Assembly (NCBI GenBank): GCA_964606385.1
Contig: CAZSFZ010000001.1
Location: forward strand, 136,304-200,303
DNA from: an uncultured bacterium
GTDB taxonomy: Bacteria; Omnitrophota; Omnitrophia; Omnitrophales; Aquincolibacteriaceae
Direction: 5' to 3'
DNA length: 64,000 nucleotides
Shown: positions 27,631 through 59,661 of the stretch, piece by piece
Layout: each line of letters starts with the position of its first letter
Numbering within the stretch: position 1 is the first letter of the stretch
Made by a program: the position numbers and the translations under genes
The notes under the pieces: model-generated
What the model saw: the letters and a program-made list of their open reading frames with translations, nothing else
Told to the model about the DNA's origin: nothing
Database searches by the model: none

Positions 27631-27674
27631 ATTTCGACAGAAAAACCATTCCCTTGAGAGACGTCGGAGAGCGT

Positions 27675-27742
27675 GGAACGGGTAACGGGAAACGATAAAA
27701 GCCCCTTTGCGCAACGTTCTCCGTTAGCCGTTTCCCGGTTTC
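27675..27742. repeat. heptad AACGG motif locus 1: ggaacgg-gtaacgg-gaaacg (27675-27694) with inverted partner cgtttcccggtttc (27729-27742)
   Basis: Three NNAACGG heptamers occur in tandem. There is a 9-bp perfect inverted repeat cgggaaacg/cgtttcccg separated by about 34 nt. The locus lies between the ftsH promoter region and the stop of the 153-aa gene. Confidence 0.5.
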
Positions 27743-27745
27743 TAG

Positions 27746-28207
27746 CTACCACCAGTAATCGTCCGCTTTAGCGGACTCGGTCTCCCGAGCTTCCTGGAAA
27801 GCCTCAGGCTGCATCGCCTCGGAGCCTTCCCGGTCTGCTTCGCCTTGCACTCCTTCTTCTAAGGAAGTTTTCTCCAAAGACTCGGAGGCGGCAGGCGCCT
27901 CGGTGGGCTGTTCTTCCCACCATCCCGCGGTATCATCGGCGGCAGGGGTCTTCGCCGTCACAGGCTCCTGGGAACCTTTCTTCTCTTTGCTGAACGGAGG
28001 GTCAATAAAGAAACTTTCGCGGGGGTTGTTTTTGACGTGATACATCAGAGGACCTTTTTTGCCGTCTTTTTCCTCTTCTTTTTTCTGTTCGTAGAGAATG
28101 CCGTTCGTCTGCGTATCCCGGATAGGGTTCTCCGCCTTGCGGACCGTCCCGAGACTCAAACCCGCTAGAACAAGCAAAAAGATACAAAACCATGTGTTTT
28201 TGTTCAT
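27746..28207 (-). CDS. hypothetical small secreted acidic protein (153 aa)
   Basis: It has the signal peptide MNKNTWFCIFLLVLAGLSLGTV and an acidic, low-complexity C-terminal half ending DDYWW. Confidence 0.45.
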   Translation of the reverse strand: MNKNTWFCIFLLVLAGLSLGTVRKAENPIRDTQTNGILYEQKKEEEKDGKKGPLMYHVKNNPRESFFIDPPFSKEKKGSQEPVTAKTPAADDTAGWWEEQPTEAPAASESLEKTSLEEGVQGEADREGSEAMQPEAFQEARETESAKADDYWW

Positions 28208-28276
28208 AAGTAAAGGATAGCGGATAAGGGCGGAAAGTGCAAATTCGCTTCTGCGGCGGGAAACGTGAACGAATGC

Positions 28277-28303
28277 GTTAACCGTTCCCCGTTTCCCGTT
28301 CCC
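28277..28303. repeat. heptad AACGG motif locus 2 (minus-strand reading gggaacgg-gaaacgg-ggaacgg-ttaa), overlapping the last 8 codons and stop of uvrA
   Basis: The same GGAACGGGAAACG core as loci 1 and 3 is present. It encodes the UvrA C-terminal tail ..RERETGNG*. Confidence 0.5.
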
Positions 28304-40598: not shown

Positions 40599-41786
40599 CT
40601 AGACTAGAATAATACGAGCAGGCTCGAAGCCGTTGAAATTAGGCACAGCGCTCGCGCAGGAATAGGCGCCGATATTTTTGGCGTAGACCACATCGCCCGG
40701 ATAGAGTTCCGGAAGCTCTTCGTTGTTGGAAAGGATATCGAAGGAATCGCAGGTCGGGCCGGCAAGCGTGCTCTTGTACTTGGCTCCGCGCCGCAGGGTC
40801 TTGAACTCGTACTTGCAGTGGTCAAAGACCATCCCGGAAAAATCCTGATAGACCCCGTCGTTCAGGTAGTAAAAATTCTGGTTGTCGCGGAACGCCCGGC
40901 CGATCACCTGCGTCACGAGGATCCCCGAAGGCCCCGCGAAAAAACGGCCCGGTTCGGCGATGAATTCCGTCTGCTTTGAGAAAAGGGCTTTCATTTGCTT
41001 GCGGATCTCGGCCGCCATGCGCTCGAAGTTGATGCCGATCTCGTTCTCGAAGTGCTGGATCGGGAACCCGCCGCCGATATCCACGATCTTAAGCGGCATG
41101 TCGTTCTCTTTCGCTTCCCGAAAAATATTCGCGGTGAGCTCGAGCGCCTGCAGGTAATTTTCGACGTTCGTCGACTGAGACCCGACATGGAAACTCACGC
41201 CCTTGGGCACAAGCCCGAGGCTCTTCGCCTTCCGGAGAAGGTAGAAAGCCTGGTCCGGCTCCGCGCCGAATTTAAGCGAGAGCTGCACCACACTCCCCCG
41301 GTTCGCGACCTTAATGCGGACGATCACATGCGCCTTGGGGAAATTCTCGGCGATCTTGTAGAGCTCGGCTTCGTTGTCGAACGTCATCAGTTTGACGCCG
41401 CGGCGGCGCGCTGTGTTGAGATCTTCTTTAGATTTGATCGTGTTCGCGAAAATGATGCGGCCCGGGGACACACCGTGTTTCAGCACCGATTTCATCTCGG
41501 CCGCGCTTGCCACGTCAAAGCTCGCGCCGAGTTCCGCGAAGGTCTTCACGATCTTCGGGTTCGGGTTGGCCTTGATGGCGTAGTACGGTGTCACTTCCGG
41601 AAAGGCCTTCGTAAAGCGGGCGTACTGCTTTTCGAGCACGCTCTTGCGGATCAGCATAAAAGGGGTTTTATGCTTTTTGAGCATCGTGCGGATAAGGTTT
41701 TCGACCCCGGAGATCTCGGCCGGTTTCGGCGGCTTATTGATCAGGATAGGCGTATTCCCGTTCAGGGGCGGTGCCTGTTTTATCAA
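40599..41786 (-). CDS. ornithine (or lysine/ornithine) decarboxylase, PLP fold-III, eukaryotic-type ODC family
   Basis: It has YAIKANPNP (the PLP lysine), GGGFP, and the active-site Cys context GPTCDSFD. The ORF-track start is a TTG 3 nt after the hss stop. Internal ATGs at M35 or M44 are alternative starts. Confidence 0.75.
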   Translation of the reverse strand: MIKQAPPLNGNTPILINKPPKPAEISGVENLIRTMLKKHKTPFMLIRKSVLEKQYARFTKAFPEVTPYYAIKANPNPKIVKTFAELGASFDVASAAEMKSVLKHGVSPGRIIFANTIKSKEDLNTARRRGVKLMTFDNEAELYKIAENFPKAHVIVRIKVANRGSVVQLSLKFGAEPDQAFYLLRKAKSLGLVPKGVSFHVGSQSTNVENYLQALELTANIFREAKENDMPLKIVDIGGGFPIQHFENEIGINFERMAAEIRKQMKALFSKQTEFIAEPGRFFAGPSGILVTQVIGRAFRDNQNFYYLNDGVYQDFSGMVFDHCKYEFKTLRRGAKYKSTLAGPTCDSFDILSNNEELPELYPGDVVYAKNIGAYSCASAVPNFNGFEPARIILV

Positions 41787-41789
41787 CGC

Positions 41790-43298
41790 TTAGACCCTTT
41801 CGTCCACAAGGAATGATTTGAACTGCCAGAGGTCTTTTTCCCGGGGGGCCTCGGACCCGAACTTCAGATATTTTTGATTGAGGTTCTTGAGCGGCGTCCA
41901 ATCCGAGGGGATCGAGACGAGCGGGACGATATAAGGCGTCGCGAACTTCAGGATGAATTCATGATCGATGTCATCCGGAAGCAGGAACCCTTCTCGGGGG
42001 TTCTGGATCATCCAGAGCGCGGCCGCGACGACCGAGACCGCGACCTGAAGCGTGGTCGCCTGCTGATGCGGAACAAGCTTGCGCGTCGTGTGGATATCGA
42101 GAAGACTGCCGCACCACCACGACTTGAAATCGTGCCCCATAAGGAGCACGCCGAGTTCATCGCGGCCGTCAATGATATCGTCAGAAAGGATGCGCTGCTT
42201 TTCCTGCATCTTGTACTGACGCATCCGGAGCTCGTGCATGGAAAGGATCGCCGCGTCCGAAGGACAATACGCGTAATGCACCGTCGGGCGATAAACGGCT
42301 TTGCCGTTCTCCCAGACCGTCAGCCGGTCCGAAAGACTGTAAGCTTCTCCATGACGGATCACCATACCGTTGATCTCGCCGCAGGGCACCCAGGAACGGA
42401 CCCAGGTGTTCATGCCAAGGGTCCCGAGACAGATCTGATTCTTAGGACCTGTTTTGTGTTCAAAACCATCTTTCGGAAGTTTCTTTTCGTGGGTCCCCCA
42501 TCCCATTTCGGCCGGAGCCACACCTTCTTCGTAAAAGCCTTCGATCGACCAGGTGTTCACGAACTCATTTACCTGTTTCGGCTTGTCCGTGATCTGGGTG
42601 TCGCGTTCGCTGACATGAATGACCTTCGTACCGGTCACTTGCGCGAGCTTCGGGAAATTCTTCTCGACGAGGAAGCGCTTAAGGTCCTTGACGCGCGGAT
42701 CGGAAGGTTTTGTTTGGATGATCTTTTTGGCGATATCGATCAAGGCCTTCTTCGTGAAATGGGAAACCAGGCCGGGATTCGCGCCGTGGTCCACGATGGC
42801 GGTGGTGCCTTTCTTGTTGCCCCACTTGTCCGTCATGAGCTTGCGGAGCTTCATATGGCGGTGATAGAGCGTGTACTGCGTCGGATCGGTCCGCTTGTCG
42901 TCACGGTACGGGTCCCATTCCTCGACTGAAGTATTCACATAGAGGACATTGTTCGCGCGGCACCAGTCGAGGATCTCCCAGCAGTCGATATTCCAGGCAA
43001 GATCGATGATCATGTCCCCGGAACCCACGTATTTCGCGAGAAGCTTCTTGTAATTCTGTTCGGTAATCTTATCGAAGACGTAGCGGACGCCTTTTTTGAG
43101 GGCGTCTTTCACGCGGGCGCGGTTGTCCACGAAATCCATGATCGTGATGTTCTTGGCCGGCATTCCGAAGTGCCGGAGCACAAGCGGCACGGTGCACTGC
43201 GACACGCCCCCGCATCCGAGGATGAGGAGTTTGCCTCCGAATTTCACTTTGGTTTTAGGAATGCTCGCCTTGACCTTCGGGTATTTAAATCCGCTCAT
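41790..43298 (-). CDS. hss: homospermidine synthase
   Basis: The translation shows extended similarity, recalled from memory, to bacterial HSS. Matching segments are LILGCGGVSQ (NAD-binding), DTQITDKPKQVNEFVNTWSIEGF, AEMGWGTHEK, AVYRPTVHYAYCPSDAAILSMHEL, DELGVLLMGHDFKSWWCGS, LQVAVSVVAAALWMIQNP, TPYIVPLV..DWTPL and the C-terminal DLWQFKSFLVDERV. The start is taken at ATG 43296-43298, which has a GGAG Shine-Dalgarno sequence. Confidence 0.75.
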   Translation of the reverse strand: MSGFKYPKVKASIPKTKVKFGGKLLILGCGGVSQCTVPLVLRHFGMPAKNITIMDFVDNRARVKDALKKGVRYVFDKITEQNYKKLLAKYVGSGDMIIDLAWNIDCWEILDWCRANNVLYVNTSVEEWDPYRDDKRTDPTQYTLYHRHMKLRKLMTDKWGNKKGTTAIVDHGANPGLVSHFTKKALIDIAKKIIQTKPSDPRVKDLKRFLVEKNFPKLAQVTGTKVIHVSERDTQITDKPKQVNEFVNTWSIEGFYEEGVAPAEMGWGTHEKKLPKDGFEHKTGPKNQICLGTLGMNTWVRSWVPCGEINGMVIRHGEAYSLSDRLTVWENGKAVYRPTVHYAYCPSDAAILSMHELRMRQYKMQEKQRILSDDIIDGRDELGVLLMGHDFKSWWCGSLLDIHTTRKLVPHQQATTLQVAVSVVAAALWMIQNPREGFLLPDDIDHEFILKFATPYIVPLVSIPSDWTPLKNLNQKYLKFGSEAPREKDLWQFKSFLVDERV

Positions 43299-43344
43299 TT
43301 TGTTTCTTTTTCTCCGTTCTCCGGTTTTGAAGTTAGGGGCCCGA

Positions 43345-43409
43345 ATATTACAACAAAAAAGAGACACCTTCAATCAATTCGAAGGATTTCACGAAGGATC
43401 GGAAGGTGT
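43345..43409 (-). terminator. rho-independent terminator immediately after lysA
   Basis: The stem is acaccttc (43364-43371) paired with gaaggtgt (43402-43409), with an inner ccttcg/cgaagg pairing. On the minus transcript it is followed by cucuuuuuuguug. Confidence 0.6.
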
Positions 43410-43410
43410 T

Positions 43411-44685
43411 TTAAACTCGTTCGCCGCGGACGAGGTCCTGGTAGGTCTCGCGTTTACGGACCACCTTAAAAGCGGAACCTTTGACCATCACTTCGCACGC
43501 CCGGGGACGGGAATTGTAATTCGAAGCCATGGTGAATCCGTAGGCGCCGGTGGTCATAATGGCCAGATGATCGCCCGCTTTCATTTCCAGGAGCTCGCGG
43601 TTCTTCGCGAAAAAATCGCCGCTTTCACAGATCGGCCCGACGACATCGTAGACCCACGCGTGCGCGTTTTCGTTTTTCGCAACCGGCCAGATATGATGAA
43701 AGGCGTTATAGAACGCGGGACGGATGAAATCATTCATGCCCGCGTCCACGATCGCGAACTTCTTCACGTCCGTTTCCTTCACATAGATCACCTTCGTCGC
43801 GAGAATGCCGCTGTTGGCCGCGATGAAACGCCCCGGCTCGAAGATGAGCTGGAACTTCCGTTTTTTAAAAAGAGGCAGGATCTTCCGCGCGAATTCATCC
43901 GCCGTTTGGGGATTTTCATCGCTGTAAATGGCGCCGAGGCCGCCGCCCAGGTTCAAGAATTTGATCCTGATACCGTCCTGCTGGAGCTCATCGATGAATT
44001 CCAGGATCTTCCTGAAAGCTTCCACGAAGGGGTCCCCGTTCTCGATCTGGGAGCCGATATGCACATGCACGCCCGTGACCTGCGCATGGCTGAAGTTCCT
44101 CGCGCTTTTGAAGATCTCGCGCGCCTTCTCAAAATCGATGCCGAACTTGGTCTCGGCCTTGCCCGTCGTGATGTATTCGTGGGTATGCGGGTCCACATTC
44201 GGATTGATCCGGAGCGACACGTTCACTTTCTTGCGCATCTTTTTGGCAATCGCGTTGATCTGTTCGAGTTCCGGCATGGATTCCACGTTAAAAAGAAGGA
44301 TCCGGGCCTTAATCGCCGCGCGGATCTCTTCCGCCGTTTTCCCGACGCCGGCGTAAACGATCTTCTTGCCCTGGCATTTCGCTTTTTTCGCCCGGAAAAG
44401 TTCCCCGCCGGAGACAATGTCCAGCCCCGCGCCTTTTTTGACGAGCGCGCGAAGGACCGCCAGGTTCGAGTTCGCCTTCACCGAATAGCAAATGAGGGGT
44501 TTCGCCGACCGGAAGGCCTTCTGGAGCTTGGCGAGATGTTCCGTGAAGGTTTTCTGGCTGTAGATATAAGCGGGCGTACCCGTTTTTTTCAGGATCTTCG
44601 AAGCGCGGACCTTATCGCAATAAAGTTCGCCCTTCTTGTAATAGAAGTCGTGCATTTTCTCTTCGTGAAAATCGGTACGGGACAT
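43411..44685 (-). CDS. lysA: diaminopimelate decarboxylase
   Basis: It has the PLP fold-III CYSVKANSN motif, a GGG motif, the CESGD active-site context and about 420 aa. Confidence 0.85.
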   Translation of the reverse strand: MSRTDFHEEKMHDFYYKKGELYCDKVRASKILKKTGTPAYIYSQKTFTEHLAKLQKAFRSAKPLICYSVKANSNLAVLRALVKKGAGLDIVSGGELFRAKKAKCQGKKIVYAGVGKTAEEIRAAIKARILLFNVESMPELEQINAIAKKMRKKVNVSLRINPNVDPHTHEYITTGKAETKFGIDFEKAREIFKSARNFSHAQVTGVHVHIGSQIENGDPFVEAFRKILEFIDELQQDGIRIKFLNLGGGLGAIYSDENPQTADEFARKILPLFKKRKFQLIFEPGRFIAANSGILATKVIYVKETDVKKFAIVDAGMNDFIRPAFYNAFHHIWPVAKNENAHAWVYDVVGPICESGDFFAKNRELLEMKAGDHLAIMTTGAYGFTMASNYNSRPRACEVMVKGSAFKVVRKRETYQDLVRGERV

Positions 44686-44715
44686 TTCAACACCTCATTC
44701 ATTTAACGTCATTGC

Positions 44716-44800
44716 GAGAAGCCTCGAAGCGGCGACGCGGCAATCTGGTTTAAATCGAGATTGCTTCGCTATCTACGCGGCTTGCAATGGACAGGAACCA
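44716..44800 (-). promoter_or_regulatory. structured intergenic element between argH and lysA (nested inverted repeats)
   Basis: There is an inner perfect hairpin gcaatct-N11-agattgc. An outer pairing cgaagc...gcttcg and cattgcgagaagc...gcttgcaatg has bulges. Confidence 0.35.
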
Positions 44801-44820
44801 TTCGACCTAAAAAACCAGCC

Positions 44821-46197
44821 TTACAACGTTTTCTTCCATGCGGCAATCGTTTGCCTGACCTGAGCGGGATGCGTGCTTCCGATCGTTTTCTTGCCTTTGA
44901 CGGACTCTTTCGCATCAAAAAGATCGTGGATGTCCGCGCCGAACTTGGGCGAGAACTTTTGCCACTCCTTGACGGACCATTCCCGAAGCCTTCTCTCGGA
45001 TTCGATCGCCTGCCGGACGGTCTGGCCCACAAGAGCATGCGCTTCGCTGAAGGGAACTTTTTTCCTCACCAGATATTCCAGGATGTCCGTCGCGAAAAGG
45101 CTGTCGTCATCAAGCGACTTTGAAAGCGCTTTTTTATTCCAGCTCGCGGAGCCCACGGCCAGCGCCAGAAGCTCCAGCGCGATCCCCGTCTTTTTCACGG
45201 CGTCGAATACCCCGGGCTTGTCCTCCTGAAGGTCCCGGTTATAAGAAAGCGGCAGGCCTTTTTGAACGGTCAGAAGGGCCTGAAGGTGACCGAAGATCAC
45301 GCCGGCCCGGCCGCGCACGAGTTCGAACACATCCGGATTTTTCTTCTGCGGCATGAGGCTCGAGCCCGTCGCGAACGCGTCATCGAGCTCCACGTACCCG
45401 AACGCCTCGGAATTCCAGAGAATGAAATCCTCCGAAAGCCTTGAAAGGTGGGTCCACAAAATGGCAAGGGCGCTCAGGATCTCCGCGAACGATCCCCGGT
45501 CGCTCACGGCCGCCATGCTGTTTTTCGCGATCCCGGAAAAACCAAGTTCTTTCATAAGGAATTTCTGGTCCAAAGGCAGGGCGGAACCCGCGAGCGCGGC
45601 CGAACCGAGCGGCAGAATATTGATCCTTTTCATAGCATCCGCGAGACGTCCGTTGTCCTCATCCAGCATTTCAACATAGGCCAGGAGGTGATGCGCGAGA
45701 AGCACCGGCTGCGCTTTCCGCAGATGCGTCATGCCCGGGAAGATGAGGCCTTCCACTTTTTCCGCGGCGGTCACGAGCGCTTTTTGGAGTTTTTTATTCC
45801 TCAACCAGATCTCAGCGACCTTCTCCCGGAGATAGATCCGGGTCGAAGTGATCACGAGATCGTTCCGGCTCCGTCCGGTATGAAGTTTTTTCGCCACCGC
45901 GCCGGCTTTTTTCTCAAGTTCCGCCTGGATCAGCGTATGGATGTCTTCATATTGGCAGGCGTAGGCCGCAAGGTCTTTGCCCCCGAAGCTCTTTTCGATG
46001 GCGGCGAGCCCTTTCAGGATGGCTTTAGCTTCCGTTCCGGTGATGATCGCGATTTTCGCGAGCATTTTCGTCCACGCACGGTTCACGCGGAGCTCCGCGT
46101 CAAAAAGCTCCTTGTCCGTCGCGAGCGAATAGCTGAAGCATTTGAGCGCCGGATGCATTTCCTTCTTGAACCTTCCACCCCAGAGTTTTTTTGCCAT
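44821..46197 (-). CDS. argH: argininosuccinate lyase
   Basis: At 458 aa, it starts MAKKLWGGRF and carries the fumarate-lyase signature GSSLMPQKKNPD. Confidence 0.9.
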   Translation of the reverse strand: MAKKLWGGRFKKEMHPALKCFSYSLATDKELFDAELRVNRAWTKMLAKIAIITGTEAKAILKGLAAIEKSFGGKDLAAYACQYEDIHTLIQAELEKKAGAVAKKLHTGRSRNDLVITSTRIYLREKVAEIWLRNKKLQKALVTAAEKVEGLIFPGMTHLRKAQPVLLAHHLLAYVEMLDEDNGRLADAMKRINILPLGSAALAGSALPLDQKFLMKELGFSGIAKNSMAAVSDRGSFAEILSALAILWTHLSRLSEDFILWNSEAFGYVELDDAFATGSSLMPQKKNPDVFELVRGRAGVIFGHLQALLTVQKGLPLSYNRDLQEDKPGVFDAVKKTGIALELLALAVGSASWNKKALSKSLDDDSLFATDILEYLVRKKVPFSEAHALVGQTVRQAIESERRLREWSVKEWQKFSPKFGADIHDLFDAKESVKGKKTIGSTHPAQVRQTIAAWKKTL

Positions 46198-46205
46198 AAA
46201 CCACC

Positions 46206-46286
46206 TTAGCGTATAGGGTTTAGGGTATAGGGCATAGGATATAGTTTCGCTTTTCTAAACCCCATCCCCTACCCACTATCCTCTAA
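46206..46286. repeat. telomere-like palindromic intercistronic repeat element, copy A (argG stop to argH Shine-Dalgarno)
   Basis: The sequence is ttagcgtatagggtttagggtatagggcatagg...ttttctaaaccccatcccctacccactatcctctaa. It is about 85% identical to copy B at 49603-49676, has the inverted-repeat core gggtttag/ctaaaccc, and has G3/C3 tracts. Confidence 0.7.
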
Positions 46287-47467
46287 TTTTTGTACATTCC
46301 CTCGTACGGAAGTCCCCAGATCTTCATGAAACCGGCCGAGGCTTTCCGGTCGAACATGTCGCCTTTCGAGTACGTTGCTAATTTTTCTTTATAAAGAGCG
46401 TATTTTGACTCGCGTCCCACACAGATCGCATGGCCCCGGTCGAGCTTGATCCGGACTTTTCCCGTCACACGCGCCTGATTGGACGCGAAGAAAGCGTCGA
46501 GCGACCGCTTGAGCGGCGAGAACCAGAGGCCGAAATACACAAGCTCCGCATATTTTTCCGTCAGGAGCCGCTTGTAATGGAGAAATTCCCGGTCCATTAC
46601 AAAGCCTTCGAGTTCTTCGTGGGCTTTTAAAAGCACATCGGCGGCCGGCGCTTCGTAAACCTCGCGGCTTTTGATCCCCACGAGTCGGTTCTCGATCATA
46701 TCAAACCGCCCGACGCCGTACTGTCCGGCGATCATATTCAGTTTTTCGATCAGGTCCACAAGCGGCATCCGGGCCCCGTTCAATTTCACCGGCACGCCTT
46801 TTTCAAAAGTAATCTCAATATAACGCGGTTTCTTCGGGGCCTTGGCCGGAGCACAGGTCATGACATACGCGGCTTCCGGCGGCTCGACCATGGGGTCCTC
46901 CAAAATCCCAGCTTCGATCGCGATCCCCCAGATATTTTTGTCGATCGAGTAAGGACTTTTCTTGGTCACATCGATCGGGATCTCGCGCTCGAGGGCGTAC
47001 TCGATCTCTTCTTCGCGCGTCTTGAATTCCCAGTCCCGGAGCGGAGCGATGATCTTCAGTTCCGGATCAAGCGTTCTGACGCCCACCTCAAGCCGCACCT
47101 GGTCATTCCCTTTCCCCGTGCAGCCGTGCGCCACATAACCAGCGCCTTCTTTTTGCGCGACTTCTACCAAGTGTTTGGCGATCAGGGGCCGTCCAAGCGC
47201 CGTCGCGAGCGGGTACTTTCCTTCATAACGCGCGTGCGCCCAAAGCGCCGGCATGATGTAATCCTTCGCGAATTCTTCCTTGAGGTCCACGATAAAGGTC
47301 TTGATCGCGCCCGCGGCCTTGGCTCGCTTGATCAAGGGCGCTTTTTCCTTCACTTCGCCGATGAACGCCGAAAAGCAGATCACGTCCAACCCGTGGTTTT
47401 CCCCGAGCCATTTCACCGCGCAAGAGGTATCAAGCCCTCCGGAATAAGCCAATACGACTTTCTTCAT
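46283..47467 (-). CDS. argG: argininosuccinate synthase
   Basis: At 394 aa, it has the AYSGGLDTS PP-loop. Confidence 0.9.
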   Translation of the reverse strand: MKKVVLAYSGGLDTSCAVKWLGENHGLDVICFSAFIGEVKEKAPLIKRAKAAGAIKTFIVDLKEEFAKDYIMPALWAHARYEGKYPLATALGRPLIAKHLVEVAQKEGAGYVAHGCTGKGNDQVRLEVGVRTLDPELKIIAPLRDWEFKTREEEIEYALEREIPIDVTKKSPYSIDKNIWGIAIEAGILEDPMVEPPEAAYVMTCAPAKAPKKPRYIEITFEKGVPVKLNGARMPLVDLIEKLNMIAGQYGVGRFDMIENRLVGIKSREVYEAPAADVLLKAHEELEGFVMDREFLHYKRLLTEKYAELVYFGLWFSPLKRSLDAFFASNQARVTGKVRIKLDRGHAICVGRESKYALYKEKLATYSKGDMFDRKASAGFMKIWGLPYEGMYKN

Positions 47468-48399
47468 TGGATCGCTCCTTGGTTAAAAAGATAAAGCAAA
47501 ACAGCTTTTTGAATATGCAGCCGGTTCTCGGCCTCGTCGAACACGACGCAGTTCTTGCTTTCCATCACATCGTTCGTGATCTCTTCGCCCCGGTGTGCCG
47601 GCAGGCAATGCATCACAAGCGCGTCTTTCTTCGCATGCGCGAGAAGCGCCTTATTGATCTGCATGCCCTTGAAATCCTTAAGCTTTTTCTTCCGCATCGA
47701 TTCTTCGCCCATGCTGACCCACACATCCGTGTAGATCGCGTCGGCATCCTTCACGGCCTTCGCGGGATCCGAAAATCCTTCGATCACGGCGCCGGTCTTT
47801 TTGGCAATCTGTTTGGCGAGCGCCAAGAGCTTGGGCTTCGGCTGGTATTTCTTGGGCGTCGCGTACCGAATCTTCGCGCCCAATTTCGCGGCTACAAGCA
47901 TCAGCGAATGCAGGACATTATTCCCATCGCCCACGAAAGCAAGCACGGGGTCCTTCTCCGCCGGGATTTTTTCATAAAGCGTCATGTAATCGGCAAGCGC
48001 CTGGCACGGATGCTCGAGATCGCTTAAACCGTTGATCACGGGTTTCTCGAAATAGTCCTGGAATTCGGTAATGGTCCAATGCGAAAAGGTCCTCATCACG
48101 ACTCCCGAAAGATACCGCGACAGCACGCGCGCGACATCGCGCACTTCTTCCCGGACGCCGAGCTTGATGTCCTCGGGCCCGAGATAGATCACGCCGCCGC
48201 CCATCGAATAAATGCCGGCCTGAAAAGACACCCAGGTCCGCGTCGAGGGCTTCTCAAAAATGAACCCGAAGATATGGCCTTCGAGCGCGTCCCGGACTTC
48301 CTGGGGACGGGCCTTGACCTTGGCCGCGAGCTCCATGATCTTGCGGATTTCTTCGGAGCTGAGATCGTTCACTGAGATCAATGATTTGAACATGCGCAA
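47464..48399 (-). CDS. argF: ornithine carbamoyltransferase
   Basis: It has STRTR, HCLP and about 310 aa. The start may be M3 (48393). Confidence 0.85.
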   Translation of the reverse strand: MRMFKSLISVNDLSSEEIRKIMELAAKVKARPQEVRDALEGHIFGFIFEKPSTRTWVSFQAGIYSMGGGVIYLGPEDIKLGVREEVRDVARVLSRYLSGVVMRTFSHWTITEFQDYFEKPVINGLSDLEHPCQALADYMTLYEKIPAEKDPVLAFVGDGNNVLHSLMLVAAKLGAKIRYATPKKYQPKPKLLALAKQIAKKTGAVIEGFSDPAKAVKDADAIYTDVWVSMGEESMRKKKLKDFKGMQINKALLAHAKKDALVMHCLPAHRGEEITNDVMESKNCVVFDEAENRLHIQKAVLLYLFNQGAIQ

Positions 48400-49598
48400 C
48401 CTTCACTTTTCTTTGAGAGTTTCATAAAAACGTTGTCGAGGATCTTCATGCCGTGTTTGATCTCTTTGGCCGAGACCGTCATCGGCGGCATGACCCTCAG
48501 GATATCTCCTTGCGTCGCGTTGATCAGAAGCCCCTGCTCGCGGGCTTCCGTCGCGTAAGGCGCGGAAGGTTCCTTGAGCTTCAGGCCCCGCATGAGCCCT
48601 ACGCCGCGCGTGCTATCGATCACGGAATACTTGGCCTTGAGCTTCTGGAATTCCTGCTCCAGCAGCTCTCCCATCCGGACCGTATTCGTAAGAAGTTTTT
48701 CCTTTTTGATCGCCTTGAAGACCGCGAGGCTCGCCGCGCACACAAGCGGGTTCCCGCCGTAGGTCGAGCCATGCATCCCGGCCACGAGCACTTCACGCGT
48801 GATCTTCCGGCTGATCAGAAAAGCCCCGATCGGCGTTCCGCCGCCCAAGGTCTTCGCGAGCGTCATGATATCGGGTTCGATCCCGTAATGCTGGTAAGCG
48901 AACATCTTGCCCGTACGCCCCATCCCGGTTTGCACTTCATCCAGAATAAGAAGCATGTCTTTTTCGTCGCAAAGTTTCCGGAGGCCTTGCATAAATTCTT
49001 GTGTCGCCACCGAAACACCGCCCTCGCCCTGGATCGGCTCGAGCATGACCGCGATGGTCTTGTCAGTCACAAGCTTTTTAACCGAATCGAGATCGTTAAA
49101 ATCCGCGTGGAGGAATTTTTCCATGAGCGGTTGAAAACCTTCGTGGAACTTGCCCTGCCCCGTCGCGCGCATGGCGGCAAGCGTCCTGCCATGAAAGGAA
49201 TTCTTCATGGTGATGATCTCGTAACGCCCCGTGTCGCTGCCGTACTTTTTCGCGAATTTGATCGCGCCTTCGTTCGCCTCGGCGCCGCTATTGCAGAAAA
49301 AAACGCGGGACGGAAATGAGGCTTCGACAAGCGTCCGGGCAAGTTCAGCCTGCTTCACGTTCAGGAAATTATTGGCTACATGAAGGATCTTGCGCGCCTG
49401 TTCTTTGACCGCGCTCACGACCCTGGGATGACAGTGACCGATCCCCGAAACAGCCCAGCCCGGGAAAAAATCGAGGTATTCTTTGCCTTCCAGGTCCCAA
49501 ACGCGCGAGCCCTTCCCTTTCACGAGGCATACAGGCACCCGCGTGTAGGTCGGCATCACATATTGATCGTAGAGTTTTTGAACGTCGTTTGTTTTCAT
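48378..49598 (-). CDS. argD: acetylornithine aminotransferase
   Basis: It is a class-III aminotransferase with DEVQTGMGRTG and a PLP-lysine context, at 406 aa. Confidence 0.85.
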   Translation of the reverse strand: MKTNDVQKLYDQYVMPTYTRVPVCLVKGKGSRVWDLEGKEYLDFFPGWAVSGIGHCHPRVVSAVKEQARKILHVANNFLNVKQAELARTLVEASFPSRVFFCNSGAEANEGAIKFAKKYGSDTGRYEIITMKNSFHGRTLAAMRATGQGKFHEGFQPLMEKFLHADFNDLDSVKKLVTDKTIAVMLEPIQGEGGVSVATQEFMQGLRKLCDEKDMLLILDEVQTGMGRTGKMFAYQHYGIEPDIMTLAKTLGGGTPIGAFLISRKITREVLVAGMHGSTYGGNPLVCAASLAVFKAIKKEKLLTNTVRMGELLEQEFQKLKAKYSVIDSTRGVGLMRGLKLKEPSAPYATEAREQGLLINATQGDILRVMPPMTVSAKEIKHGMKILDNVFMKLSKKSEGCACSNH

Positions 49599-49602
49599 AA
49601 TT

Positions 49603-49676
49603 TTAGCGTATAGGGTTTAGGGGATAGGGTATAAAAGGCTTTTCCTAAACCCTATACCCTACCCTCTATCCCCTAA
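49603..49676. repeat. telomere-like palindromic intercistronic repeat element, copy B (argB stop to argD start)
   Basis: The sequence is ttagcgtatagggtttaggggatagggtata-aaaggctttt-cctaaaccctataccctaccctctatcccctaa. There is a 13-bp perfect stem tatagggtttagg/cctaaaccctata. The minus (mRNA-sense) strand reads GGGGATAGAGGGTAGGGTATAGGG, a canonical four-tract G-quadruplex motif. Confidence 0.7.
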
Positions 49677-50527
49677 AGTGTGATTTCCGTCCCGATCCCT
49701 TGATCGGTGAAAATTTCGAGCAAAAGAGCGTGCGTGATGCGGCCGTCGATGATGTGCGCTTTCGGGACCCCGCCCCGGAGCGCGTCAATGCAGGCTTTCA
49801 CTTTGGGGATCATGCCCCCCGAAATAATGCCCTGATCGATCAGTTTCTGTGTGTCGTCCACATGAAGCGAGGGGATCAGCGTCTCGTCATTCGTGTGGTC
49901 CCGCAGGATCCCTTTCACGTTCGTAAGTACCATGAACTTGTGCGTGTTCATCGCCGCCGCGATATTCGCCGCCGCTTCATCCGCATTCACGTTATACATC
50001 TCGCCGTCCGGCCCTTTTCCGACCGGAAAGATCACCGGAATCCGGCCGAATTCCGTCAATTCTTTAAGCGGCACCGTATTCACGGAACTGACATCCCCGA
50101 CAAACCCGATATCTCCGTTTTCGGTGTTCTTCACGACGTTCAAAATCTCCGCGCCGTAGCCCGAAAGCCCGACCGCCGAACCGCCGAGCCGTTCGATATC
50201 ATGAACGATGCTCCGGTTGAGCTCCGCCAGCGTTTCATTGACGACCTCGATCGCCGCCTTGTCCGTCACGCGGAGGCCGTTAATGAACTGGCTCTGGATG
50301 CCTTTCTTCTTCATGTTCTCGGTGATGTATTTCCCGCCGCCATGGATCAGGATCGGCCGGATCCCGACATAGCTCATGAAGACAAGGTCCTGGAGCACCA
50401 TGTCCCGCACTTCCTGATAGGTCAGCGCCGCGCCGCCGTACTTGATGAGAACTTCCTTCCCCCGGAACTTCTGGATATAGGGAAGGGCCTCGATCAGAAC
50501 GTTGGCTTTTTCGATGAGTTTCTGCAT
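49673..50527 (-). CDS. argB: acetylglutamate kinase
   Basis: At 284 aa, it has VLIKYGGAA and the amino-acid kinase fold. Confidence 0.9.
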   Translation of the reverse strand: MQKLIEKANVLIEALPYIQKFRGKEVLIKYGGAALTYQEVRDMVLQDLVFMSYVGIRPILIHGGGKYITENMKKKGIQSQFINGLRVTDKAAIEVVNETLAELNRSIVHDIERLGGSAVGLSGYGAEILNVVKNTENGDIGFVGDVSSVNTVPLKELTEFGRIPVIFPVGKGPDGEMYNVNADEAAANIAAAMNTHKFMVLTNVKGILRDHTNDETLIPSLHVDDTQKLIDQGIISGGMIPKVKACIDALRGGVPKAHIIDGRITHALLLEIFTDQGIGTEITL

Positions 50528-50530
50528 TTT

Positions 50531-51751
50531 TTAAGAGTAGGCCGCGTTGATCAGCACGTATTTCGTCGTGAGATCCGAGGTAATGAACTCCGCCCGGCCG
50601 CGTCCTTTTCCAATCGTCACATCGATCGTGTATTCTTTTTTCTGAAGGATGCGCCGCGCTTTCGGAAGGTTCAGCACCCGAAGCCGTCCCTGGCTTACGA
50701 CCTGCGCGTCCCCGAACCAGATGCTCAGATTGTTCGGATTGAAATCCACGCCGCTCGCGCCGACCGCCGCCGCGATGCGGCCCCAGTTCGGATTCGAACC
50801 CGCGAGCATGGTCTTGAAAAGCATGGAGTTCGCGATCTGCCGCGCCGCGCGTTCCGCGTCCGTAGGCTTTTTCGCTCCCGACACCCGGAGCCGGCATACA
50901 TGCGTTACGCCTTCGCCGTCCACGACCATCTCGTGGGCGATATAGCGCATGACCTCTTCCAGGGTCTCCCGGAACATCCAGTAATCCTTGCCGATCTTGT
51001 GGATCGGAGGGTTCCCCGCTTCGCCGTTCGCGAGGCAAAGCACCATATCGTTCGTGCTCATGTCGTTATCGATCGCCATCTGGTTGAACGTATCATCCGC
51101 CGCGTGGCGCACCGCCCGCCGCAGGAGCGACTTCGTGATCGCGCAATCGGTCGTGATGAAACAAAGCATGGTCGCCATATTGGGGTGCACCATTCCCGCG
51201 CCTTTCGCGCAGGCCGCGATCGTCACTTTTTTGCCGCCCAATTCGACCGACAAGGCGATCTCTTTGCTGGAAAGGTCCGTCGTCAGGATCCCTTTCGCCG
51301 CCCCGTGGCCGCCATTCTCGGAAAGCCGGTTCGCAAGCCTCGGAAGCGCCCGCTTCACGCAGGTGATCGGAAAAGGAACGCCGATGATCCCCGTTTGAGC
51401 GATCAGCACTTCTTGAGGTAACACGTCGAGATATTTCGCCGTCTCCCAGGTGATCTCGTCGACCGCTTTTTTTCCGATCGGACCGTTCAGACAGTTCGCG
51501 TTCCCGCTTGTCCCGATGATCGCGTGATGCTTCGAAGCATGAATGGCCTTCATCGAATAAAGCACCGGCCAAGCTTTTGCGCGATTGGTCGTGAACGTTC
51601 CCGCCGCGACGCACGGCGTCTTGGAATAGATCAGGGAAACGTCGTATTTCTTTTTCTTCTTTTTGATCCCCGCGTGGATGCCGCCCGCGATAAAACCCTT
51701 CGGTGTCGTGACCGAACCGTTCTTTTCTTTCTTCCAAAAAGGTTTCTTCAC
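50531..51751 (-). CDS. argJ: bifunctional glutamate N-acetyltransferase/amino-acid acetyltransferase
   Basis: It has the autoproteolytic site context PNMATMLCFITTD and about 405 aa. The start is GTG (51749-51751), with an AAGGGAGAG Shine-Dalgarno sequence 8 nt upstream. Confidence 0.85.
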   Translation of the reverse strand: MKKPFWKKEKNGSVTTPKGFIAGGIHAGIKKKKKKYDVSLIYSKTPCVAAGTFTTNRAKAWPVLYSMKAIHASKHHAIIGTSGNANCLNGPIGKKAVDEITWETAKYLDVLPQEVLIAQTGIIGVPFPITCVKRALPRLANRLSENGGHGAAKGILTTDLSSKEIALSVELGGKKVTIAACAKGAGMVHPNMATMLCFITTDCAITKSLLRRAVRHAADDTFNQMAIDNDMSTNDMVLCLANGEAGNPPIHKIGKDYWMFRETLEEVMRYIAHEMVVDGEGVTHVCRLRVSGAKKPTDAERAARQIANSMLFKTMLAGSNPNWGRIAAAVGASGVDFNPNNLSIWFGDAQVVSQGRLRVLNLPKARRILQKKEYTIDVTIGKGRGRAEFITSDLTTKYVLINAAYS

Positions 51752-51826: not shown

Positions 51827-52849
51827 TTAAAGGAGTCCCGCCTCCTCGGGGAATCCAAACCGGATGTTCATGTTTTGCACGGCCTGCCCGGCCGCTCCTT
51901 TGACAAGATTGTCGATCGCCGTGAGGATCACCACGCGTTTCGTTTCCTCCTGCACGCTCACGCCGATATCGCAAAAATTCGTGTGCTGCACGTCTTTCAG
52001 GCACGGGTACTGCCCCGCCGGCTTGACCCGCACAAAAGGCGCCTTCTGGTACGCCGTTTCGAGTGTTTCCCGGATCTTGCTTTCGGTTGCCCTGGCCGTT
52101 GTCTGGGCATAAATCGTCGCGAGAATCCCCCGATTCACCGGCAAAAGATGCGGCACGAACGTGATCTTCACGGGTTTTCCCGCCGCCAGCGAAAGCGTCT
52201 GCTCGATCTCGGGCGTATGTTGGTGTTTATTCACCTTGTAAGCATTGTAGTTCTCGTCCACTTCACAGTAATGCGTCGCGGTCACAAGTTTTTTGCCCGC
52301 GCCGCTCACCCCCGAAGCCGCGTTAATGATGATCGTGGCGGGATCGATCAGTTTTTTCTTCAGAAGCGGGATCAACGCGAGCGAAGGCCCCGTCGGATAA
52401 CATCCCGGATTCGCGATCAGGTCCGCCTTTTTGATCTTTTCCCGGTTGATCTCGCAAAGCCCGTAAACCGCTTTCGAAAGATACTGGGGCGCGACATGGT
52501 TCACGCCGTACCACTTCTCATAGATCTTCCGGTCCTTCAGGCGAAAATCCGCCGAAAGATCGATCACCACCTTGCCGGCCGCGAGGAGCTGTTCCGCCGC
52601 CGTCATGGCTTCCGTATGGGGCAGGCATAAAAAAACCACATCCGCCTTTTTTTTCACCGCGTCAAAGGAATAAGGCGTGATCTCAAGGGCAATATTCTTG
52701 GCGACCGAAGGAAGGATCTCTCGAAGGGCGATGGCTTTTTCCTGCCGGGTGGTCAAGAGAGCGACCTTGGCATGAGGATGGCCCAAGAGAAGCTTTGTCA
52801 GCTCAGCTCCGGTATATCCCGTTGCACCGAGTACCGCACAATTCAGCAT
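51827..52849 (-). CDS. argC: N-acetyl-gamma-glutamyl-phosphate reductase
   Basis: It has VLGATGYTG and the catalytic GCYPT motif. The start is taken at ATG 52847-52849 (MLNCAV), downstream of the predicted transcription start site. The ORF-track start 52927 lies inside the promoter -35. Confidence 0.85.
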   Translation of the reverse strand: MLNCAVLGATGYTGAELTKLLLGHPHAKVALLTTRQEKAIALREILPSVAKNIALEITPYSFDAVKKKADVVFLCLPHTEAMTAAEQLLAAGKVVIDLSADFRLKDRKIYEKWYGVNHVAPQYLSKAVYGLCEINREKIKKADLIANPGCYPTGPSLALIPLLKKKLIDPATIIINAASGVSGAGKKLVTATHYCEVDENYNAYKVNKHQHTPEIEQTLSLAAGKPVKITFVPHLLPVNRGILATIYAQTTARATESKIRETLETAYQKAPFVRVKPAGQYPCLKDVQHTNFCDIGVSVQEETKRVVILTAIDNLVKGAAGQAVQNMNIRFGFPEEAGLL

Positions 52850-52898
52850 GGAATGCACTTTTCTCCTTTTAGTACAATTTAAGGCTAGCGAACTGGGT

Positions 52899-52927
52899 AT
52901 TATAGAAATGGCTCTATCCTTTGTCAA
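52899..52927 (-). promoter_or_regulatory. argC operon promoter (minus strand TTGACA-17-TATAAT)
   Basis: On the plus strand, attata is at 52899-52904 and tgtcaa at 52922-52927. On the minus strand this reads TTGACAaaggatagagccatttcTATAAT. It lies about 45 nt upstream of the argC ATG, which has an AAAGGAGAAAAG Shine-Dalgarno sequence. Confidence 0.65.
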
Positions 52928-57831: not shown

Positions 57832-58584
57832 TTACGATCTATATCTAACCCTAAGCAGCGTAAGGCCTTCCGACGGAGCTGTCATGCCGGCCTGACGTCG
57901 GTCTTTGGCCTTGAGAACGGCCTTGATGCTGGCGGCAGAGCGCTTCCCCTTACCCACTTCGACAAGTGTCCCGACCATATTGCGGATCATGTGATAAAGA
58001 AAGCCGTCGGCTTCGACCCGGATGCGGATCAGGTCCCCCTCTTTTTTGATGCGGCATTGTTTGATCGTCCGGACATAAGAGATCTTTTCTTTTTTGATCG
58101 CGGAGGGCGAGGTAAAAGACCGGAAATCGTGCTTCCCGACCAAGGATTTGGCGGCCTGACGCATCCTGACCGCATCGAGACGAAAAGGCACGTGATAAGC
58201 CCGGCCGGCCGCAAGGGGCGATCGGTAAGGATGATTCCAGATCCGGTATTCATAGATCTTGGAGCGGACATGATAACGGGCGTGAAAATCGGGGCCGACC
58301 TCTTCGATCTTTTTGATGACCATGGAAGGCGGTAACAATGCGTTCAGCCCGCGCTGGATCCGACCCAAGGATTCGCGTCCTGAGGTCTTGAAATTGACGA
58401 CTTGTTCTTCCGCGTGGACCCCCGTGTCGGTACGACCGCAAGCGGCCGCGATCTTCATTTTGCGGCGGAAGAAAACCGAAAGGGCTTTTTCGAGAGCTTC
58501 CTGAATGGTGGGTTTTCCGGGTTGTTTCTGGAACCCGAAAAAGGCGGAACCGTCATATTCGAGAACGAGTTTGATGTTTCTCAT
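57832..58584 (-). CDS. truA: tRNA pseudouridine(38-40) synthase
   Basis: At 250 aa, it has the catalytic Asp context GRTDTGVHA. Confidence 0.85.
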   Translation of the reverse strand: MRNIKLVLEYDGSAFFGFQKQPGKPTIQEALEKALSVFFRRKMKIAAACGRTDTGVHAEEQVVNFKTSGRESLGRIQRGLNALLPPSMVIKKIEEVGPDFHARYHVRSKIYEYRIWNHPYRSPLAAGRAYHVPFRLDAVRMRQAAKSLVGKHDFRSFTSPSAIKKEKISYVRTIKQCRIKKEGDLIRIRVEADGFLYHMIRNMVGTLVEVGKGKRSAASIKAVLKAKDRRQAGMTAPSEGLTLLRVRYRS

Positions 58585-58607
58585 TTATTCGCTCCACGAA
58601 CCAAGGG

Positions 58608-58641
58608 CCACGGGCCACGAAAACCCTCTCGTGGCTCGTGG
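58608..58641 (-). promoter_or_regulatory. GC-rich hairpin between asd stop and truA start
   Basis: The stem is ccacgggccacga paired with tcgtggctcgtgg (one mismatch) with an 8-nt loop. No U-tract follows, so it is not a canonical intrinsic terminator. Confidence 0.35.
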
Positions 58642-58656
58642 TGCGTGGTCCGTGGC

Positions 58657-59661
58657 TCAGCTTGCGAAAGCTAGCTCCGCGATCTGGACCGCGTTCAGCG
58701 CGGCGCCCTTGCGGATCTGGTCACCGCAAACGAACATCGAAAGACCGTTCTTCACGGTCGGGTCCTGGCGCAAGCGGCCGACCAGGATATCATCCTGCCC
58801 TGTCGCTTCGAGCGGCATCGGAAAATAATTCTTCTCGCGGTCATCGATCACCTTCACGCCGGGCGCTTTGGCAAGCAGCTGACGGGCTTCCTCCGCCGAG
58901 ATCGGTCTTTCCGTTTCGATCGTGAGCGCTTCGGAATGGGCCCGGAGCACGGGGACGCGCACGCAGGTCGCGGTGATCCGGATATCGGGATCATGGAAGA
59001 TCTTCTTGGTCTCTTTCACCATCTTGGTCTCTTCTTCGTTATATCCGTCCGGCCCGATCTTGGAGTTATGGGAGAACACGTTGAACGCGATCTGGTGCGG
59101 CAGGACTTTTTTCTGAACGGGTTTTCCAGCCAGAAAATCCTGCGCCTGGATCTTGAGTTCCTCCATCGCTTTCGCCCCGGCGCCGCTCGCGGCCTGATAG
59201 GTCGCCGCGACCAAACGCTTGATCTTCACGACCTTGTGGATCGGCCAAAGCGGCACAAGAGCGATGATCGTCGAACAGTTCGGGTTTGCGATAATTCCTT
59301 TGTTCTTGGCGATATCCCCGGCATTGATCTCGGGAATGACAAGCGGGATCTCGGGATCCATCCGGAAAGCGCTCGTGTTGTCGACCATCAGAGCGCCGGA
59401 TTTCACAATGTGCGGCGCAAGCTCGCGGCTGATCGCCCCGCCCGCGCTTGAGAGCACCACATCAAGCCCTTTGAAGGAATCGGGTTTCGCTTCTTGGACT
59501 TCATAGTTTTTCGCCATGAATTCGATCTTTTTGCCGGCGGAACGTCCGGAGGCCAGAAACCTCAGCTCCTCGATCGGGAACTTGCGCTCTTTCAAGAGCT
59601 CAAGGAATTCCTGACCCACTGCGCCTGTAACCCCTAACACCGCGACCTTCAACTTCTTCAT
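58657..59661 (-). CDS. asd: aspartate-semialdehyde dehydrogenase
   Basis: It has VAVLGVTGAVGQ and the active-site Cys in ANPNCSTI, at 334 aa. Confidence 0.9.
   Translation of the reverse strand: MKKLKVAVLGVTGAVGQEFLELLKERKFPIEELRFLASGRSAGKKIEFMAKNYEVQEAKPDSFKGLDVVLSSAGGAISRELAPHIVKSGALMVDNTSAFRMDPEIPLVIPEINAGDIAKNKGIIANPNCSTIIALVPLWPIHKVVKIKRLVAATYQAASGAGAKAMEELKIQAQDFLAGKPVQKKVLPHQIAFNVFSHNSKIGPDGYNEEETKMVKETKKIFHDPDIRITATCVRVPVLRAHSEALTIETERPISAEEARQLLAKAPGVKVIDDREKNYFPMPLEATGQDDILVGRLRQDPTVKNGLSMFVCGDQIRKGAALNAVQIAELAFAS

Follow-up and report, generated by a model that had tools for sequence, protein, structure and literature searches.

According to work cited by MacGregor 2015 (PMC4679880), heptanucleotide repeats outnumber all other long simple repeats in most of the prokaryotic genomes surveyed. 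One class was described by Rehm et al. 2015 (PMC4692102) as G-rich heptameric repeats, with the unit GGGAATC in Xanthomonas and GGGGA(C/T)T (STRR1-type) in Nostoc. These repeats are over-represented in non-coding DNA that separates aligned open reading frames (ORFs), where the coding strand is G-rich within 50 bp of, or overlapping, a stop codon and C-rich just upstream of ORFs. Xanthomonas carries ~180 arrays and 70–75 convergent inverted pairs per genome, with a preference for four units, and between Xcc and Xac the positions are kept while sequence and length vary. In vitro, oligonucleotides of the types (GGGAATC)n and (GGGGAYT)n fold into G-quadruplexes; the study identified no function for the repeats (PMC4692102). 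Here we examine two inverted heptanucleotide repeats, copies A and B, in the arginine (arg) operon of an uncultured bacterium of Candidatus Omnitrophota. They lie in a 64,000-nucleotide stretch of contig CAZSFZ010000001.1 (positions 136,304 to 200,303), hereafter the window, copy A between argG and argH and copy B between argB and argD. An initial annotation of the sequence had presented copy A as a telomere-like palindromic repeat able to form either a long hairpin or an RNA G-quadruplex.

Copies A and B belong to the class of G-rich heptameric inverted repeats of Rehm et al. 2015 and agree with it in every feature that can be tested. The 7-nt unit again consists of a tract of three or four Gs and an A/T-rich remainder (GGGNWTA here, GGGNATC there). 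The arrays have about four units, are non-coding, lie between co-oriented ORFs and are convergent, so that they can form a stem-loop. As in the described repeats, the coding strand is rich in G at the stop codon and rich in C immediately ahead of the following start, and position is kept while length and sequence vary. The differences are that A and B occur in Candidatus Omnitrophota, that their units are degenerate and that copy A has no fourth G3 tract. In addition, relatives within the Omnitrophota replace the G-tract core by non-G cores but retain the hairpin, which argues against a conserved G-quadruplex. The class has thus been described before, and the phylum is new for it.

A second type of heptamer array, the TAACTGA direct repeats of marine Beggiatoaceae, cyanobacteria and Bacteroidetes (MacGregor 2015, PMC4679880), is likewise intergenic, and its 2–6 heptamers stop a few nucleotides short of a start codon. 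Such arrays contain stop codons in all three frames, as follows from the 7-nt period, and copy A similarly has a TAG every 7 nt. The gene downstream of them often has no canonical Shine–Dalgarno sequence, as is the case for argD here. However, their one fixed unit is repeated directly, with a single inverted case among 170 sets (PMC4679880), whereas A and B are inverted, degenerate and hairpin-forming. Heptamer repeats near start codons are also known from Nostoc (bioRxiv 10.1101/2022.06.06.494920).

A third comparison is with the repetitive extragenic palindromic (REP) sequences and the related BIMEs and REPINs, the latter being REP doublets that form hairpins and occur with RAYT transposases (Bertels & Rainey 2011, PMC3116915). 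Copies A and B share with these families a similar size, the form of an extragenic imperfect palindrome, the location in operon spacers and the existence of genome-specific sequence types. REP sequences reportedly stabilise the upstream mRNA and, when located within ~15 nt of a stop codon, hinder the terminating ribosome. A role as an exonuclease barrier, and as an obstacle to the terminating ribosome where the stem abuts the stop codon, is equally plausible for the present elements. Unlike A and B, REPs have no 7-nt period, and the GTAG-type 5′ tetranucleotide is not fixed in the heptamer hairpins. By analogy, REP and REPIN sequences would be their nearest functional counterparts.

Architecture of copies A and B

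On the minus strand, which is the mRNA sense, copy A is an inverted heptanucleotide-repeat hairpin that fills the argG–argH spacer (46206–46286), as recognised from its sequence, its lag-7 periodicity and its predicted fold. The G-rich 5′ arm (46255–46286) reads T/TAGAGGA/TAGTGGG/TAGGGGA/TGGGGTT/TAG, the loop (AAAAGCGAAACUAUAUC region) occupies 46238–46254, and the C-rich 3′ arm (46206–46237) reads ..CCTA/TGCCCTA/TACCCTA/AACCCTA/TACGCTA/A. Copy B, also on the minus strand, is a predicted hairpin of the same type that starts at the argB stop codon TAG and fills the argB–argD spacer (49603–49675). Its parts are a 5′ arm (49647–49675; TAGGGGA TAGAGGG TAGGGTA TAGGGTT TAGG on the mRNA strand), a loop (49642–49646), a 3′ arm (49611–49641; TACCCTA TCCCCTA AACCCTA TACGCTA A) and an unpaired terminal unit, TACGCTAA (49603–49610). 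The units are degenerate in both copies, TAGGGNN in the 5′ arm and NNCCCTA in the 3′ arm, with 4–5 of them per arm. Each consists of a 5-nt core (TAGGG or CCCTA) and two variable nucleotides, and adjacent units are never identical. Read on the plus strand, copy A has TAG at its positions 2, 9, 16, 23, 30 and 37. Self-similarity at lag 7 was 0.63 for copy A and 0.56 for copy B, compared with 0.1–0.4 at other lags, and was reached in none of 2000 shuffles.

The two copies are identical at 65 of 81 alignment columns (80%), or 89% over ungapped positions, which makes the earlier figure of about 85% a fair one, and the final 20 nt, CCCTAAACCCTATACGCTAA, are common to both. When the window was searched for the 19-mer TAGGGTTTAGGGTATAGGG with up to 3 mismatches, all 7 matches fell inside A and B (0.01 expected). 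The arms are predicted to pair into a stem of ~26 bp, in which helices of ~5 bp alternate with mismatches of 1–2 nt every 7 nt. The fold energy was −27.6 kcal/mol for copy A (z −2.4) and −35.8 kcal/mol for copy B (z −4.5), in agreement with the long hairpin that had been proposed. The accompanying description of the element as G-tract rich on one strand and C-tract rich on the other has to be amended, as both DNA strands are G-rich in their 5′ half and C-rich in their 3′ half.

Copy A is fitted closely between its two genes. The argG–argH spacer is 85 nt long (46198–46282), and the repeat proper (46206–46285) opens with the argG stop codon TAG (46285–46283), whose nucleotides pair at the foot of the stem, and ends with CGCTAA at 46206. 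Eight nucleotides, GGTGGTTT, separate it from the argH ATG (46197–46195), so that the minus-strand order across 46150–46340 is ...GTACAAAAAT, TAG, AGGATAGTGGGTAGGGGATGGGGTTTAGAAAAGCGAAACTATATCCTATGCCCTATACCCTAAACCCTATACGCTAA, GGTGGTTT, ATG GCA... A Shine–Dalgarno-like AAGGTGG at 46207–46201, followed by a 3-nt TTT and the ATG, forms an argH ribosome-binding region (46195–46207, minus) directly 3′ of the stem. The element was therefore correctly described as running from the argG stop codon to the argH ribosome-binding site, and as having a second copy in the operon, since copy B sits likewise between argB and argD.

The operon itself is transcribed from the minus strand in the order argC (51827–52927), argJ (50531–51751), argB (49673–50527), argD (48378–49598), argF (47464–48399), argG (argininosuccinate synthase, 46283–47467), argH (argininosuccinate lyase, 44821–46197) and lysA (43411–44685). 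All eight genes obtained equivalog-level scores with NCBIfam models, among them NF001770 for argG (E 5e-170) and TIGR00838 for argH (E 5e-154). Homologues of ArgG assign the bacterium to Candidatus Omnitrophota. A perfect sigma-70-type promoter, TTGACA-17-TATAAT (12/12 consensus match), lies upstream of argC at 52899–52927 on the same strand. Its context, AACTTCTTAAATTGACAAAGGATAGAGCCATTTCTATAAT, is near-identical in three related operons (L007, L009 and L251, introduced below), despite the different heptamer hairpins that flank it there. Because of this promoter, and because neither copy coincides with a terminator-like site, copies A and B are most probably internal to one polycistronic arg mRNA. 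Downstream of lysA, and also on the minus strand, are a saccharopine-dehydrogenase-family gene (41790–43373) and a second gene of the Orn/DAP/Arg decarboxylase family (40599–41786), and the synteny of this pair is kept in L001, L002 and L007. We take the pair to be of the kind typical of carboxy(nor)spermidine dehydrogenase and decarboxylase in the polyamine pathway.

Heptamer hairpins in related arg operons

The arg operons of six related populations were obtained by exact look-up of close ArgG homologues. A neighbour-joining tree of five arg genes grouped the window with L001 (89% nucleotide identity) and L251 with L004 and L007, with L003 and L009 as separate branches. The two spacers that hold the TAGGG-type copies A and B in the window carry hairpins with other cores in most of these relatives. 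In L001 both spacers have the core CAGCG (CAGCG/CGCTG at argG–argH). In L003 the argG–argH element is of the GTACGG/CCGTAC type, and argB and argD overlap, with no element. L009 has GTACGG/CCGTAC at argG–argH and GAGCG at argB–argD, and L007 has a GTACGG–GAGTTCG hybrid at the former and GAGTTCG at the latter. A TAGGG element, 70% identical to copy A and with CTAAACCCTATACGCT identical, was found at argG–argH of L251, whose argB–argD spacer has the core CAAGAAG. The operons L004, L005 and L006 have short spacers of 31 nt (argG–argH) and 26 nt (argB–argD) and no hairpin, and in P0008-bearing contigs the spacers are only 9–26 nt; for P0008, as for the relative P0004, spacer lengths alone were compared. 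Heptamer hairpins occur in the relatives also at argJ–argB, at argF–argG and in the rnc–argC region.

The folded elements resemble each other in structure and placement. A z-score of −2.4 or lower was obtained for 13 of the 17. Among the operon-internal elements, the main stem starts at the first nucleotide of the stop codon in 9 of 15, and the start codon follows the 3′ foot of the stem after a median of ~13 nt (8–12 nt for A and B). About four units per arm are typical regardless of the core. G-tracts, by comparison, are kept in only one of the five relatives with sequence at argG–argH (L251) and in none of the four with an argB–argD element. Since related genomes carry hairpins with different cores at the same spacers, the conserved features are, on this comparison of sequences, the hairpin and the 7-nt period and not the G-tracts. 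The element itself is dispensable in some lineages, because two or three of them have none and some relatives have spacers of 9–31 nt in its place.

The arms of each element have evolved together. Native combinations of 5′ and 3′ arms gave mean energies of −27.3 kcal/mol (argG–argH) and −31.7 kcal/mol (argB–argD), compared with −18.6 and −17.5 kcal/mol, respectively, for cross-genome chimeras, and swapping the 3′ arm between genomes abolished folding unless the core type was shared. Covariation was measured in an alignment (A1) of eight elements of the YAGSG type, using a consensus of 5-bp helices at 7-nt spacing. In this alignment 91% of cells were paired, compared with 83.4% in shuffles (0 of 500 reached the observed value) and 24–54% when the register was slid. 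There were 11 doubly changed cells where 5.0 were expected. Pair 22/59, which is GC in four elements and CG in four, corresponds to the difference between TAGGG/CCCTA and TAGCG/CGCTA. The initial annotation was to count as refuted if only the two copies existed, with no compensatory covariation or G-tract conservation in related genomes. As worded this is not the case, since further related copies and covariation were found, but the G-tracts are absent from most relatives.

The pattern of change within the arrays points to their mode of turnover. The outermost 3′ unit, TACGCTA(A), is kept in copies A and B and in L009 and L251, while the interior units vary, and in the Omnitrophota metagenome-assembled genome L077 a single array mixes TATAGCG and TATAGGG units. 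We infer from these sequences that interior units may turn over by slippage while an old unit survives at the edge, and that the 'telomere-like' TAGGG core would be a one-base neighbour of the TAGCG core. Copies A and B do have plant-type telomere units, (TTTAGGG)n, to the extent that one unit of A and two non-adjacent units of B spell TTTAGGG/CCCTAAA. These are never in tandem, however, and the elements differ from telomeres further in being operon-internal, in having inverted arms and in having a core that becomes TAGCG, CAGCG and so on in relatives. The telomere-like label is therefore superficial and unsupported for copy A, with its single non-tandem unit inside a bacterial operon; the G-tract spelling is a lineage-specific state of a drifting core and not the functional feature.

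These two spacers of an essential operon amount to a natural experiment, in which the core has changed repeatedly (TAGGG, TAGCG, CAGCG, GAGCG, GTACGG, GAGTTCG) and the 7-nt period, the number of about four units per arm, the complementarity of the arms and the stop-codon/ribosome-binding-site geometry have stayed constant. Because the cores change and the geometry persists, it is the stem-loop, or a process that makes stem-loops, that appears to be maintained rather than a G-quadruplex. The comparative series is the most useful product of the analysis, since it allows a direct test between hairpin and G-quadruplex. It has a practical side as well, in that heptamer hairpins can mislead gene callers and a telomere-like spelling is easily mistaken for something exotic. 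The called argH starts of L001 (11251) and L009 (11247) fall inside or next to the hairpin, and that of L007 (11288) lies four codons downstream of it. Alignment with the window N-terminus MAKKLWGG suggests that the true starts are at 11275 in L001, at 11276 in L007 and at about 11259 in L009. Such hairpins can thus distort the annotation of start codons.

Proposed origin and possible effect of the hairpins

We favour, with moderate confidence, the explanation that the element is an inverted heptamer hairpin renewed by slippage, which acts as a REP-like, non-essential intercistronic stem-loop. This confidence concerns mostly the identity of the element and much less a physiological effect. The arrays would arise, and be continually renewed, by replication slippage. 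Interior units would be homogenised in the process, and the edge unit TACGCTA would be a fossil of an older TAGCG/CGCTA core. Either selection for the hairpin or palindrome-templated correction, or the two together, would uphold the complementarity of the arms. On transcription the element would fold into a stem-loop 'extruded' from the arg message, so that the stop and start codons would remain side by side although the spacer is 80 nt longer. The stem-loop might then have a REP-like effect, as a 3′-exonuclease barrier or as an RNase III-type processing site between the cistrons, and might modestly affect termination and re-initiation at the argG/argH junction.

Several observations weigh against this explanation. 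It is position and predicted structure that suggest the REP-like effect. Folding energies do not favour the mRNA strand, the summed minimum free energy (MFE) being −480 kcal/mol for the sense and −498 kcal/mol for the antisense strand, and in alignment A1 the cells with G–U wobble pairs outnumber the A–C cells just 7 to 4. Given this lack of strand preference and the few extra G–U cells, complementarity may be kept at the DNA level without any function in RNA, for example by palindrome-templated correction. Moreover, the argB–argD and argG–argH elements often share a core within one genome (the window, L001 and L007). Purely local slippage would be insufficient to produce such sharing, which suggests copying between loci, by gene conversion or by mobility.

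If copying is by mobility, the hairpins would be miniature elements of the REPIN or MITE (miniature inverted-repeat transposable element) kind, non-autonomous and copied by a transposase acting in trans, such as a RAYT-like HUH enzyme. Each genome would have its own active type, and any effect on arg mRNA would be a by-product. We regard this as unlikely. It would account for the same core at two spacers 3.4 kb apart that differs between genomes (TAGGG in the window, CAGCG in L001, GAGTTCG in L007), and for presence and absence that vary among close relatives and between spacers (argJ–argB, argF–argG and the rnc–argC region). The arg spacers also hold unrelated palindromic repeats (argH–lysA in the window, argD–argF in L009), and the size and doublet-hairpin form resemble those of REPINs (PMC3116915). 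On the other hand, orthologous elements keep their flanks and the edge unit while the interior units change, which fits evolution in situ, and target-site duplication is not evident. The 10 small ORFs of the window that had no assignment contained no Y1/HUH transposase domain, the other genes not all having been scanned. The strict 7-nt periodicity is a signature of slippage and not of known REP or MITE families, and TAGCG and TAGGG units are mixed inside single arrays. A different process again would be involved if the array served to bind a protein that recognises 7-nt units, either a single-strand binder of the cold-shock/S1 type near the start codon or a DNA-binding protein, with a role in translation initiation or nucleoid organisation. 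The 5-nt core at exact 7-nt spacing with two free positions would suit such a protein, as would the 3′ arm, which is often longer and leaves at least one unpaired unit upstream of the start (copy B TACGCTAA; L003 argG–argH). Direct heptamers upstream of starts have indeed been proposed as sites for post-transcriptional regulators (PMC4679880; bioRxiv 10.1101/2022.06.06.494920). A single specific binder is improbable given a core that changes among close relatives and even among the elements of one genome (the window has at least three types). The predicted structure, moreover, has most units in base pairs, and we consider this reading very unlikely. A far-reaching extension of the stem-loop idea would make the heptamer-array hairpins a phylum-spanning functional 'punctuation' between cistrons. 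The stop codon and the next ribosome-binding site would be held together and termination coupled to re-initiation over a long spacer, the G-arm-first arrangement would keep the C-rich, Rho-attracting arm paired, and a dedicated copying or homogenising activity would keep the copies alike while the cores drift. The predominance of heptanucleotide units among the long simple repeats of prokaryotes would then be explained, but we consider the idea a speculative and rather improbable extension.

The remaining alternatives concern what the transcript itself does. The initial annotation had raised an RNA G-quadruplex, and in its general form the proposal is that the G-rich 5′ arm, as RNA or DNA, competes with the hairpin beside the ribosome-binding site of argH or argD and adjusts translation or the stability of the mRNA. 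Copy B does have a canonical G3N1-7 ×4 motif, on the mRNA strand only, as has the argG–argH orthologue of L251, related heptamer oligonucleotides form quadruplexes in vitro with four units preferred (PMC4692102), and two other window elements (D and E, below) also contain GGGAAAC-type units. In copy A, by contrast, neither strand has more than three G3+ tracts, so that a canonical four-tract motif is lacking; GGG or GGGG occurs in three units of the mRNA 5′ arm of copy A and in four of that of copy B. With G-quadruplexes allowed in ViennaRNA, the hairpin was the MFE structure for all four TAGGG-type elements (A, B, L251 argG–argH and L251 argJ–argB). The hairpin of copy B, at −35.8 kcal/mol, lay ~25 kcal/mol below its isolated 5′ arm, at −10.8 kcal/mol, and in copy A no G-quadruplex was predicted even for the isolated arm. 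A G-quadruplex cannot be the conserved function because most relatives have no G-tracts at these positions, their cores being CAGCG, GAGCG, GTACGG, GAGTTCG or CAAGAAG with the hairpin kept. Nor does the preference for four units require one, since the same relatives keep about four units per arm. A G-quadruplex switch is accordingly highly improbable. An intrinsic terminator or attenuator that halts part of transcription between argG and argH would fit a stable stem-loop directly 3′ of a stop codon. Neither hairpin is followed by a U-run, however (the sequence is CGCUAAGGUGG after A and CGCUAAAAUUAUG after B), and the terminator scan, which returned 17 sites where 15.5 were expected by chance, gave none at A or B. 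In addition, the essential downstream genes argH and argD had no promoter of their own in the scan, and we consider termination here extremely unlikely. The model also speaks against a general role in hiding the ribosome-binding site. The mean probability of being unpaired from −16 to +3 was 0.74 for argD, which has an A/U-rich leader and no obvious Shine–Dalgarno sequence, 0.49 for argH, and 0.37 for truA (downstream of element C, below), whose GGAG is partly within the stem. Next to copy B, the argD start region was about 0.9–1.0 unpaired. As the start regions lie outside the stems and are largely unpaired, the elements are predicted not to be ribosome-binding-site-sequestering switches in general.

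Other repeats in the window and in wider searches

The window contains five heptamer hairpins, A to E, with three core types, of which the TAGGG type is represented by the two copies A and B. A scan for periodic segments gave 8 at lag 7, compared with 2–3 at lags 6 and 8, and all 8 were within the five hairpins. Element C (58588–58656, minus), with units CCACGNN/NNCGTGG, fills the spacer between asd (58657–59661) and truA (57832–58584) and has a predicted energy of −43.5 kcal/mol (z −6.3). Element D (27665–27745, minus), of the GGNNAAC/GTTNCCC type with a lag-7 self-similarity of 0.55, lies directly 3′ of the stop codon of the ORF at 27746–28207. Its sense fold is weak (z −0.6), and the antisense fold has −35.9 kcal/mol. 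Element E (28255–28308, minus), GGGAAAC/GTTTCCC, overlaps the 3′ end of uvrA (28278–31064) and has a z-score of −3.0. The other intergenic gaps of at least 50 nt that were inspected held ordinary hairpins or other repeats and no further heptamer arrays.

An identity of elements D and E as integron attC sites was considered, as GGCTAAC/GTTAGCC is close to the core consensus RYYYAAC/GTTRRRY. It was rejected because they have four tandem units per arm instead of single core sites, deviate from the consensus at one position, and are accompanied by no integrase that was noticed in the ORFs scanned. Rfam 15 gave no match at the gathering threshold across the window. Below that threshold a microRNA hairpin model alone matched, on either strand of copy B, with 28.6 bits (threshold 97; E 0.2), which is at the level of chance.

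Wider searches were made with two patterns. In a genome collection, the matches to CCCTATNCCCTAWWCCCTAW that were listed (L011–L130) were dominated by cyanobacterial direct CCCTATT arrays. Inverted CCCTAxx arrays with the architecture of A and B were also among them and are spread over many phyla, coming from Selenomonadaceae, Chitinophagaceae, Nitrospira, Calditrichaceae, Ignavibacteriaceae, Flavihumibacter, Chloroflexi and others. Among the same listed matches, the inverted G-rich partner was located 5′ of the CCCTAxx array in 25 cases and 3′ in 2. The topology 5′-G arm/loop/C arm-3′ reads the same on both DNA strands, and the opposite arrangement is nearly absent from these matches. This G-arm-first bias is equivalent to the positional rule of Rehm et al. 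2015.

Metagenome contigs were scanned with the pattern CCCTAWNCCCTAWACGCTAA, for which the loci L131–L250 were listed. Most of these matches were long degenerate CCCTAAA arrays, many of them from contigs with the JGI prefixes Ga0075108/9, Ga0208413, Ga0208768 and Ga0222648, and they are probably eukaryotic telomere or subtelomere repeats. Bacterial hairpins were few among the listed matches (L182, L185 and L228). Bacterial motifs of telomere-like spelling therefore cross-match real telomeres.

Repeats of other kinds were noticed in the same operons. The argH–lysA spacer of the window (44707–44820) has an unrelated palindromic repeat, ...GCGAAGCAATCTCG...AGATTGCCGCG...CTTCGAGGCTTCTCGCAATGAC, and L001 and L003 have at this place a conserved 123-nt leader instead, GGTGYTGAGATGCCCCATTCTCT...GGGACTAGTCCYAGCAACC. 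Another unrelated palindromic repeat, GTCATTCCCGCGAAGGCGGGAATCCAG..., lies in the argD–argF spacer of L009 (8812–8898), and presumably resembles repeats that are common in environmental genomes.

Elsewhere in the window, an ORF of 5277 aa (661–16494, minus) contains at least 14 tandem copies of a 258-nt (86-aa) repeat, and its product is presumably a giant repetitive surface protein. Just downstream of it, at 590–650, a perfect 21-bp inverted repeat, ACCCCACCTCGTAGGTGTGGT/ACCACACCTACGAGGTGGGGT, is followed by TTTTT on the minus strand and, unlike the heptamer hairpins, looks like a classical intrinsic terminator. Finally, a long-range inverted repeat, CCCCGTTAGAGAT...ATCTCTAACGGGG, occupies the intergenic positions 23577–23744 of the window. 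A similar one, CCCCGTTAGAGAT...ATCTCTAACAACGGGG, flanks ~100 nt in the argC leader of L251 (4284–4592), and the two may belong to a shared MITE-like family.

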